Assembly: GCF_003334785.1 (NCBI RefSeq)
Contig: NZ_QOWV01000006.1
Length of the DNA: 64,000 nucleotides
Reading direction: 5' to 3' (one strand)
Origin: Escherichia coli
GTDB lineage: Bacteria; Pseudomonadota; Gammaproteobacteria; Enterobacterales; Enterobacteriaceae
A program made the position numbers and the translations under genes. Under the pieces are notes generated by a model, which saw nothing but the letters and a program-made list of their open reading frames with translations, was not told where the DNA came from and ran no database searches. Numbering within the stretch: position 1 is the stretch's first letter; each line of letters starts with the position of its first letter. Shown here one piece after another: positions 48,735 to 49,550 of this stretch.

Positions 48735-49550
48735 TTAGCGAAGTGTTTTTGGGGTCATTACCCGACGAGCGCCAACATAGTGGCGCTGCCAGTAGTCTTC
48801 ACTGAGAGAAGTGATTTGAATTTCCTGACCTGTGCGCGGTGACTGAATAAATTTGCCGTTGCCGACATACACGCCGACATGATCGGCTGTGCCGCGTCCC
48901 TGAGTACGGAAAAAGACCAGGTCGCCGTTTTTCAGTTCACTACGTTCGATTGGCGCTGCATCACGCAGGTGATACATTTCATTCGCCGTACGCGGAATAC
49001 GAATTTTCACCAAATCTTTATAAGCGTAATAAACCAGGCCGCTGCAATCAAAACCGGTACGCGGTGAGCTGCCACCCCAACGATATGGCTTACCAATTTG
49101 CTGCATCAGTTTATTCATTGCCACTTTCGTAGCTTTTTGCACCTTCGCTTTGTGCGCGTCGGCAAGAGTTCCTGACGCGGCATTTTTGACTTTCACACAA
49201 TGCGATTTATAGCCCTTACGTTTGGTACACTTTTCGGTAAAGCTGGCTGAGGCCGTTTTATTGACGGCGTGTTTGCTGCGAGTTTTGGCGTTTTTAGAAG
49301 CGGTAATGGAAGATTTTTTAACGGAAGAAGCGGTTTTGCTTTTGGTCGTACTTTTACTGGCGGCTTTTTTCGCTGTTTTCTGGGTCTTTTTGGTGGTTGC
49401 CGTGCTTTTCTTTTTATCTGCTTTTTTGGTGATATGAGTGGTAGCAGAACTCTCCCTGGCTTGCTTTGAAGCATGGGCCATAGGCGTTAAAGGCAGGGTG
49501 GTAAAAAGTAAAGCACAGAGCGTGATCGAAATACGGTTTATCCGCGCCAC
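48735..49550 (-). CDS. mepH: NlpC/P60-family peptidoglycan endopeptidase (YdhO) with basic low-complexity linker
   Basis: ORF track 271 aa; GTG start at 49550; signal peptide; Lys/Thr/Ser/Ala-rich linker; C-terminal NlpC/P60-like region (DCSGLVYYAY...HVGVYVG). Confidence 0.88.
   Translation of the reverse strand: MARINRISITLCALLFTTLPLTPMAHASKQARESSATTHITKKADKKKSTATTKKTQKTAKKAASKSTTKSKTASSVKKSSITASKNAKTRSKHAVNKTASASFTEKCTKRKGYKSHCVKVKNAASGTLADAHKAKVQKATKVAMNKLMQQIGKPYRWGGSSPRTGFDCSGLVYYAYKDLVKIRIPRTANEMYHLRDAAPIERSELKNGDLVFFRTQGRGTADHVGVYVGNGKFIQSPRTGQEIQITSLSEDYWQRHYVGARRVMTPKTLR

Follow-up and report, generated by a model that had tools for sequence, protein, structure and literature searches.

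The mepH (ydhO) gene of Escherichia coli encodes a peptidoglycan DD-endopeptidase of the NlpC/P60 (C40) family, and in the 64-kb stretch of E. coli chromosome analysed here (64,000 nucleotides, referred to below as the window) it lies on the minus strand at 48735..49550. Between its signal peptide and its catalytic domain MepH carries a lysine-rich segment, the DNA of which also keeps three other reading frames open. It is very probable that the account given here is right as a whole, namely that this segment belongs to a polycationic, disordered N-terminal tail, that the charge and general chemistry of the tail are kept while its sequence drifts, and that the additional open reading frames (ORFs) are artefacts. 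It is established knowledge what MepH is, which family it belongs to and that it is regulated by NlpI-Prc and BipP. The overall weight of the finding is small, because MepH is a well-studied E. coli endopeptidase and additional ORFs of this kind are a standard composition artefact. Nevertheless, how E. coli controls the activity and location of its three elongation endopeptidases, which are redundantly essential, is under active study (NlpI-Prc, BipP), and the near-constant charge of about +20 offers a simple testable hypothesis for a neglected part of MepH. The elements of the gene and its product are the following:

48735..49550, minus strand: mepH (ydhO) coding sequence, 816 nucleotides (nt), 271 amino acids (aa), GTG start.
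49470..49550, minus strand: signal peptide, aa 1-27, MARINRISITLCALLFTTLPLTPMAHA|SK, with a basic n-region, a hydrophobic core and an A-x-A site.
49242..49469, minus strand: predicted disordered tail, aa 28-103, net charge +20, isoelectric point (pI) 11.2.
49269..49427, minus strand: K/T/S/A-rich polycationic tract, aa 42-94, with the quoted string KKADKKKSTATTKKTQKTAKKAASKSTTKSKTASSVKKSSITASKNAKTRSKH.
49182..49241, minus strand: Cys box, aa 104-123, FTEKCTKRKGYKSHCVKVKN, modelled as a beta-hairpin with C108 and C118.
49095..49166, minus strand: long helix, aa 129-152, before the catalytic core, taken from the AlphaFold2 (AF2) model.
48762..49094, minus strand: NlpC/P60 catalytic domain, aa 153-263, Pfam PF00877.

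The original prediction, made from the sequence of the window, had described a K/T/S/A-rich low-complexity tract between the signal peptide and the NlpC/P60 domain, and such a tract is present at aa 42-94 with 46 of 53 residues belonging to these four types (18 K, 10 S, 10 T and 8 A). The interval given for it, 49190-49475, corresponds to the union of the additional ORFs and not to the tract proper, which is confined to 49269-49427. The net charge of the tract, +18 in 53 aa, is the highest among all window ORFs of at least 150 aa, and the whole tail (aa 28-103) contains 22 K+R against 2 D+E. The sequence entropy is 2.28 bits in the tract as compared with 3.68 bits in the NlpC/P60 domain. At the level of DNA the coding strand of the tract consists of 47.8% A and 11.3% T, while both bases make up about 25% each of the rest of the gene and of the window, and no other 159-nt stretch of the window has so extreme an A/T strand skew. 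Tandem Repeats Finder (TRF) reported no tandem repeat with a score of at least 30 between 48700 and 49600, thus the tract is of low complexity yet non-repetitive. Disorder prediction, proposed as a check on the tract, is suggestive of an intrinsically disordered tail: in an AF2 model built from a 49-sequence alignment aa 19-97 have a predicted local distance difference test score (pLDDT) below 50, and aa 14-103 of this model contain neither helix nor strand according to DSSP.

The same low complexity has a practical consequence for similarity searches, which fail silently when they are restricted to the tract, through low-complexity masking. When 28 Gb of E. coli genomes were searched with queries of 80 nt taken from it (for example 49344-49423), the outcome was “No match”, the queries being masked by the DUST filter of BLAST. 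Likenesses of the tail to Pfam families were rejected, as the matches consisted solely of spurious low-complexity hits (Presenilin, Ycf1, Mucin; E>=0.007).

Comparison of orthologues, the other check proposed, speaks for retention of the tract as a low-complexity segment. The basic region is present in Escherichia, Citrobacter, Salmonella, Kosakonia, Enterobacter, Leclercia, Scandinavium and others, and a K/R-rich low-complexity segment is retained in all 49 aligned orthologues, where the original prediction was to be abandoned if the linker proved absent or not of low complexity. Distant representatives (43-60% identity) exhibit the same architecture, with K/T/S/A/H/P-rich tails of 63-152 aa, which is also the range of tract length across the orthologues. 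The mean pairwise identity increases along the mature protein as follows, the signal peptide having 77% pairwise identity among close orthologues:

Tract, aa 42-94: 0.25-0.32 (0.32 in close orthologues).
Cys box, aa 104-123: 0.41-0.60 (0.60 in close orthologues).
Helix, aa 124-152: 0.56-0.67 (0.67 in close orthologues).
NlpC/P60 domain, aa 153-263: 0.85-0.91 (0.91 in close orthologues).

The composition of the tract is far more uniform than these values. Across the orthologues the K+R fraction is 0.28 +/- 0.02 and the D+E fraction 0.03 +/- 0.02, hydrophobic residues account for 5%, and the net charge of the 49 sequences is +19.9 with a standard deviation (sd) of 2.6. When residues are drawn independently for tracts of equal length the sd is 5.6, a comparison that ignores shared ancestry and is suggestive only. 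Selection appears to keep the bulk chemistry of the tail, that is a charge of about +20, few acidic or hydrophobic residues and disorder, with sequence and length left to drift.

The biased composition is also what opens the additional frames. All three ORFs that had been listed exist at exactly the coordinates given for them, all are nested in the 271-aa mepH ORF, and none is present in the RefSeq annotation:

49193..49474, minus strand: 93-aa ORF, ATG start, in the +1 register of mepH.
49222..49437, plus strand: antisense ORF of 71 aa, TTG start, F/L/V/A-rich.
49269..49469, plus strand: antisense ORF of 66 aa, GTG start, F/G-rich.

The translation of the 93-aa ORF is K/R/P-rich and comprises 27 K+R, no D+E and 19 P. 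The stop codons TAA, TAG and TGA all require both T and A. The codons of Lys (AAA/AAG), Thr (ACN), Ser (AGC/TCN) and Ala (GCN) are the source of the high A and low T content of the coding strand, and stops are consequently few in the alternative frames of both strands. Measured from stop to stop over position 49348, three frames other than that of mepH are open, and not two as had been counted: the minus-strand +1 frame for 97 codons and two plus-strand frames for 74 and 72 codons, while the two remaining alternative frames are closed there (36 and 11 codons). The expectation was obtained by holding the MepH protein fixed and redrawing its codons by the usage of the long ORFs of the window (n=2000). 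In 72.5% of these synonymous resamples three or more alternative frames had at least 66 open codons, and the observed lengths were equalled or exceeded in fractions of 0.27, 0.84 and 0.87 of the resamples for the three frames, the +1 frame having 97 codons against a mean of 78.6. All lengths therefore lie within the null, and the proposal that biased DNA accounts for the ORFs on both strands holds. Openness of this extent (four or more of the six frames, at least 66 codons) covers 8.3% of the window and is distributed over 45 separate segments. The compositional bias of the tract is beyond chance; the open frames are not, as they follow from the amino-acid sequence, and the three are composition artefacts and not genes. 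Shadow or phantom ORFs of this kind, arising where coding DNA has a biased composition, are well known as artefacts of gene finding. Nothing was encountered that contradicts this reading of the three ORFs. The case of mepH is the same in kind and could be called a textbook one, its sole twist being that gene callers make use of the phantom ATG in frameshifted assemblies, as described below.

What such a tail can do depends on where it is placed. The signal peptide of MepH ends in AHA|S, a site of the signal peptidase I type, and by the A-x-A rule cleavage is predicted to occur there; the lipobox expression [LVI][ASTVI][GAS]C found no match within the first 40 residues. Because the protein has no lipobox and has a signal peptidase I type site, mature MepH is predicted to be soluble in the periplasm and the tract would be part of a free N-terminal tail, which would not bridge an anchor and a domain. 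It had been suggested that the linker may tether the endopeptidase to the cell envelope. Tethering through an anchor is not borne out, as there is no lipobox and the tail is free, while a non-covalent association based on charge is possible. The outer-membrane lipoproteins LpoA and LpoB, in which disordered linkers pass through the sacculus to PBP1A and PBP1B and join a lipid anchor to a folded domain, offer a comparison (PMC9732909 alludes to them). Both the Lpo linkers and the MepH tail are long, flexible, low-complexity regions of periplasmic cell-wall factors; however, the former are true tethers and MepH has no anchor.

The apparent selection on charge and disorder, and not on sequence, makes it likely that the ligand of the tail is abundant, anionic and non-specific. 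Peptidoglycan carries the free carboxylates of D-Glu, meso-diaminopimelic acid (mDAP) and D-Ala, and anionic lipids are the other candidate in the periplasm. The most likely mechanism, put forward tentatively and at somewhat less than even chances, is that the tail binds anionic polymers of the envelope electrostatically, through multivalent and non-specific contacts. Its partners would be anionic lipids and, in peptidoglycan, the free carboxylates of the stem peptides, and a scarce, soluble endopeptidase would thereby be concentrated on its substrate; secondarily, such binding could alter the rate at which MepH is degraded by NlpI-Prc. It is possible, if doubtful, that the tail goes further and constitutes a charge-tuned targeting or regulatory module, whose charge of about +20, nearly constant across Enterobacterales, makes a low-abundance enzyme adhere to the anionic sacculus or to anionic membranes and so sets where and for how long it acts. 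If that were true, the tail would represent, on a hydrolase of a Gram-negative bacterium, the counterpart of the composition-dependent intrinsically disordered regions (IDRs) of Bacillus subtilis PBP1 and RsgI, and the tract would be robust to frameshifts, as its +1 frame also encodes a K/R/P-rich polycation.

The extracytoplasmic IDRs of PBP1 and RsgI were reported to function when scrambled or swapped (Brunet et al. 2022, PMC9732909), and their authors propose non-specific multivalent contacts with peptidoglycan. Like the MepH tail, these IDRs are disordered, polar or charged and poorly conserved regions of cell-wall proteins, and in them composition matters over sequence. In contrast, they are located C-terminally on membrane-anchored proteins of a Gram-positive bacterium, whereas the tail of MepH is N-terminal on a predicted soluble Gram-negative hydrolase and is far more cationic. 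By composition the tract also resembles histone-H1-like proteins. AlgP and Hc1 possess Lys/Ala-rich tails which bind DNA in the cytoplasm and consist of tandem repeats of the KKxAAKK type. A very high Lys content together with Ala, Ser and Thr is common to these tails and to the MepH tract, and one distant MepH-like protein (P0222) has an actual KKPAAKK/KKSAAKK repeat at the position of the tail. The tract of E. coli MepH is predicted to be periplasmic and is non-repetitive, unlike AlgP and Hc1.

Several points weigh against the account of a charge-selected, functional tail. No study on the MepH tail was found in the literature searched, which excepted subscription-only papers (for example Singh et al. 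2012). The AF2 model of MepH is modest overall (mean pLDDT 59), so that disorder is suggested and not proven, and the charge statistic, as said, takes no account of common descent. Moreover, in-frame deletions of the tail exist in E. coli. They remove 10-61 residues and are found in clusters of 1-2 sequences (P0008, P0009, P0014, P0016-18, P0020, P0045, P0047), and in two of them (P0045 and P0047) the Cys box is deleted too, K62 being joined to A124 at a repeated AAS/GCCGC microhomology. From these variants it may be that the length of the tail, at least, does not matter much. The argument has its own caveat, as the variants are singletons and mepH is individually dispensable in wild-type cells (PMC11789061).

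The deletions are equally what would be expected of a tail that has no function of its own. According to this explanation the tail is a tolerated, drifting spacer, its composition is kept by slippage and by the mutational inertia of A-rich DNA, and the sole selection is against bad folding or blocked export. The low identity and variable length of the tract agree with it, as do the dispensability of the single gene (PMC11789061), the rare deletions listed above and a common indel of 12 nt:

49383..49384, minus strand: site of the 12-nt (QKAS) indel, mepH codon 57/58, L001:768-779, from protein and DNA alignments.

The window carries the short allele of 271 aa, and the 275-aa allele carries CCAAAAAGCCAG as an insertion at this site, which places QKAS after Q57. 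The split was estimated from identity bands: 2972 genomes match the mepH ORF at >=99% and 2454 at 95-99%, and sampled rows of the two bands measured 816 nt and 828 nt respectively, which gives about 2972 short and up to 2454 long alleles among 5426 complete genomes. As Escherichia albertii has the long form of 275 aa (P0006), the short allele is probably the derived one, produced by a deletion between short CCA..AAA repeats. Against the view of a functionless spacer it may be said that the tail is kept in 49/49 orthologues and is never shorter than 63 aa outside the rare E. coli variants, that its net charge varies less than half as much as independent draws would (sd 2.6 vs 5.6), and that acidic residues remain at about 3% even though a one-base change from AAA/AAG to GAA/GAG would yield them. 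On balance a spacer of this kind is considered unlikely, and a tail kept for its charge is preferred.

A different role for the N-terminal region would be recognition by NlpI-Prc, through docking of the adaptor or initiation of degradation, as is the case for the IDR of MepS. MepH is a substrate of Prc/NlpI, and both its abundance and its half-life are Prc- and NlpI-dependent (PMC8996183, PMC11789061). In MepS (Spr) the disordered N-terminus is required for binding of NlpI and folds upon binding (PMC11211486). In both enzymes an export signal is followed by an N-terminal IDR and then by the NlpC/P60 domain, their catalytic domains are paralogous (PDB 2k1g, 7v6s and 8xud; E ~1e-19 to 1e-20) and both are degraded by NlpI-Prc, with the difference that MepS is an outer-membrane lipoprotein and MepH lacks a lipobox. 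However, the IDR of MepS comprises about 37 aa and its binding to NlpI acts via the conserved hydrophobic residues L24 and F31 (PMC11211486), whereas the MepH tail has about 76 aa and a charge of +20, and its tract is 5% hydrophobic and 25-32% conserved. Homology of the two N-terminal regions was considered and rejected, since full-length MepS (8xud_I) aligns only from aa 145 of MepH onwards and no similarity is detectable before that point. A substantial share of MepH degradation is, in addition, independent of NlpI (PMC11789061). The explanation by NlpI-Prc recognition is accordingly judged quite improbable for the tract, and a docking element, if there is any, is likelier to be found in the better-conserved Cys box and helix (aa 104-152).

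The Cys box itself may be a site where a partner binds, or an element stapled by a disulfide; its two modelled strands (104-109 and 117-122) are of low confidence (pLDDT 56-59). Solved NlpC/P60 relatives, MepS included, begin to align at about aa 122-150 of MepH, and aa 1-121 are covered by neither a solved structure nor NMR data. The catalytic part is much better covered: 39 solved NlpC/P60 chains match MepH at E<=1e-5, and the PF00877 (NLPC_P60) match at aa 153-263 has E=2.3e-36 over the full model length 1-105. No MepH-specific model of NCBIfam scored above its cut-off, the best being the MepS equivalog with 86 bits against a cut-off of 186. C169 (DCSG), H224 (DHVG) and Q236 are invariant across the 49 orthologues and are the putative catalytic triad, by homology to C68 of MepS and by general knowledge of the family; a C68 mutant of MepS was employed in PMC11789061. 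DD-endopeptidase activity of E. coli MepH on 4-3 cross-links is reported by literature cited in PMC11211486. Among more remote relatives, four metagenomic or genomic proteins (P0121 with 1183 aa, and P0123, P0127 and P0128 with 666-785 aa) have an unusual architecture in which 5-9 NlpC/P60 domains stand in tandem, with about 33-37% identity between each of them and the domain of MepH.

The A-rich DNA of the tract contains homopolymers, and at one of them the reading frame of mepH is found to be shifted in database sequences:

49314..49319, minus strand: run of six A (A6) in the codons of K78-K79; an extra A gives the frameshifted allele P0030 (DNA alignment; L004-L007:1656).

The resulting A7 allele is translated in databases as a signal-less protein of 246 aa named “putative exported hydrolase”, which occurs in its exact sequence on 36 contigs. 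When the A6 run gains one A, gene callers take the phantom ATG at 49474 as the start, and in this way the phantom ORF contaminates protein databases. P0030, P0042 and P0049 all start there and later return to the frame of mepH. Two further variants (P0013 and P0061) enter the +1 frame and return, at about codons 44-90 of the tract region, and their altered segment is K/R/P-rich with a K+R fraction of 0.34, hence still basic. The 101-member cluster represented by P0030 was rejected as a frameshifted lineage, because most of its members are ordinary partial MepH fragments and the exact sequence alone corresponds to A7. Three or more haplotypes, differing slightly from one another, carry the allele, and a T7/T8 homopolymer difference accompanies it nearby. 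None of 5425 complete RefSeq genomes has it. Its source may be either recurrent slippage or read error. Its NCBI copies come from long-read assemblies with accessions of the STG/STJ/STI style, which we take to be associated with the PacBio project of NCTC.

It could be supposed from the occurrence of A7 on at least three haplotypes, and of its exact protein on 36 contigs, that the A-runs make mepH a phase-variable contingency locus which is switched off by slippage. This is highly improbable, given the absence of the allele from the complete genomes, the origin of its copies in long-read assemblies, and the T7/T8 variation of the same contigs, which is as expected of read errors. The runs of mepH are also of six at most, and longer ones are avoided if anything. 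Of its Lys codons, 37 in number, most are AAA, and the longest A-run is 6 in place of a mean of 8.5 in the synonymous resamples, 4.4% of which had a longest run of <=6 (P=0.044); it is a weak hint that long slippery poly(A) is avoided in mepH by selection.

Least credible of all is the idea that one of the alternative ORFs is a real overlapping gene, either for a small basic +1 protein or for a hydrophobic antisense peptide: the ORFs are present, the 93-aa one starts with ATG and frameshifted database entries do read the +1 frame, but the lengths are those predicted by the amino-acid sequence of MepH alone, the +1-frame database proteins stem from single-base homopolymer changes and not from an independent gene, the bases upstream of ATG 49474 read TTTAACGCCTATGGCCC and hold no obvious Shine-Dalgarno-like sequence, no second RefSeq feature is annotated beneath the mepH interval, and the ORFs are broken or shifted in Salmonella and Citrobacter koseri. 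In these two (L008 and L009) the +1 frame is open for 57-58 codons and closes within the linker, at mepH codon 62-72, and the antisense open stretches are at other positions or different. The Rfam scan of the whole window at gathering thresholds gave no RNA family in or near 49190-49475.

The mepH ORF was matched in all 5426 complete E. coli genomes, and RefSeq places the label “peptidoglycan DD-endopeptidase MepH” at the same ends; DNA of 100% identity is found in many RefSeq genomes. The gene order in the window is sodB–mepH–grxD–lhr, and the synteny grxD-mepH-sodB is common to E. coli, Salmonella and Citrobacter (C. koseri). The neighbouring genes, taken from the ORF listing, are:

48026..48607, minus strand: sodB.
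49884..50231, plus strand: grxD.
50282..54898, minus strand: lhr.

Some individual copies of mepH deserve mention. In E. coli TUM2805 (NZ_CP128950.1), a strain with a small genome of 4.09 Mb, most of the gene has been lost and 14% is left, the 5' end beside grxD, the remnant being annotated as “endopeptidase”. One genome has a second copy of mepH, located on a plasmid. The orthologue of Salmonella enterica (P0056, L008:1201-2055) has an N-terminal extension of 12 residues (MNRLPLTEDCSV-ARINK...) before the conserved signal peptide, which is probably an over-long start call.

Elsewhere in the window the Rfam scan detected the enterobacterial small RNA STnc550, with a full-length match of 396 bits at 46069-46459 (plus strand), about 1.6 kb beyond sodB. 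Further matches at the gathering level were RprA at 13433-13540 (minus strand), rydB at 19144-19204 (plus strand), two tRNA genes at 37323-37396 and 37404-37477 (both minus strand), and the antisense RNA HPnc0260 at 37196-37358 (plus strand), which overlaps one of the tRNA genes on the opposite strand.

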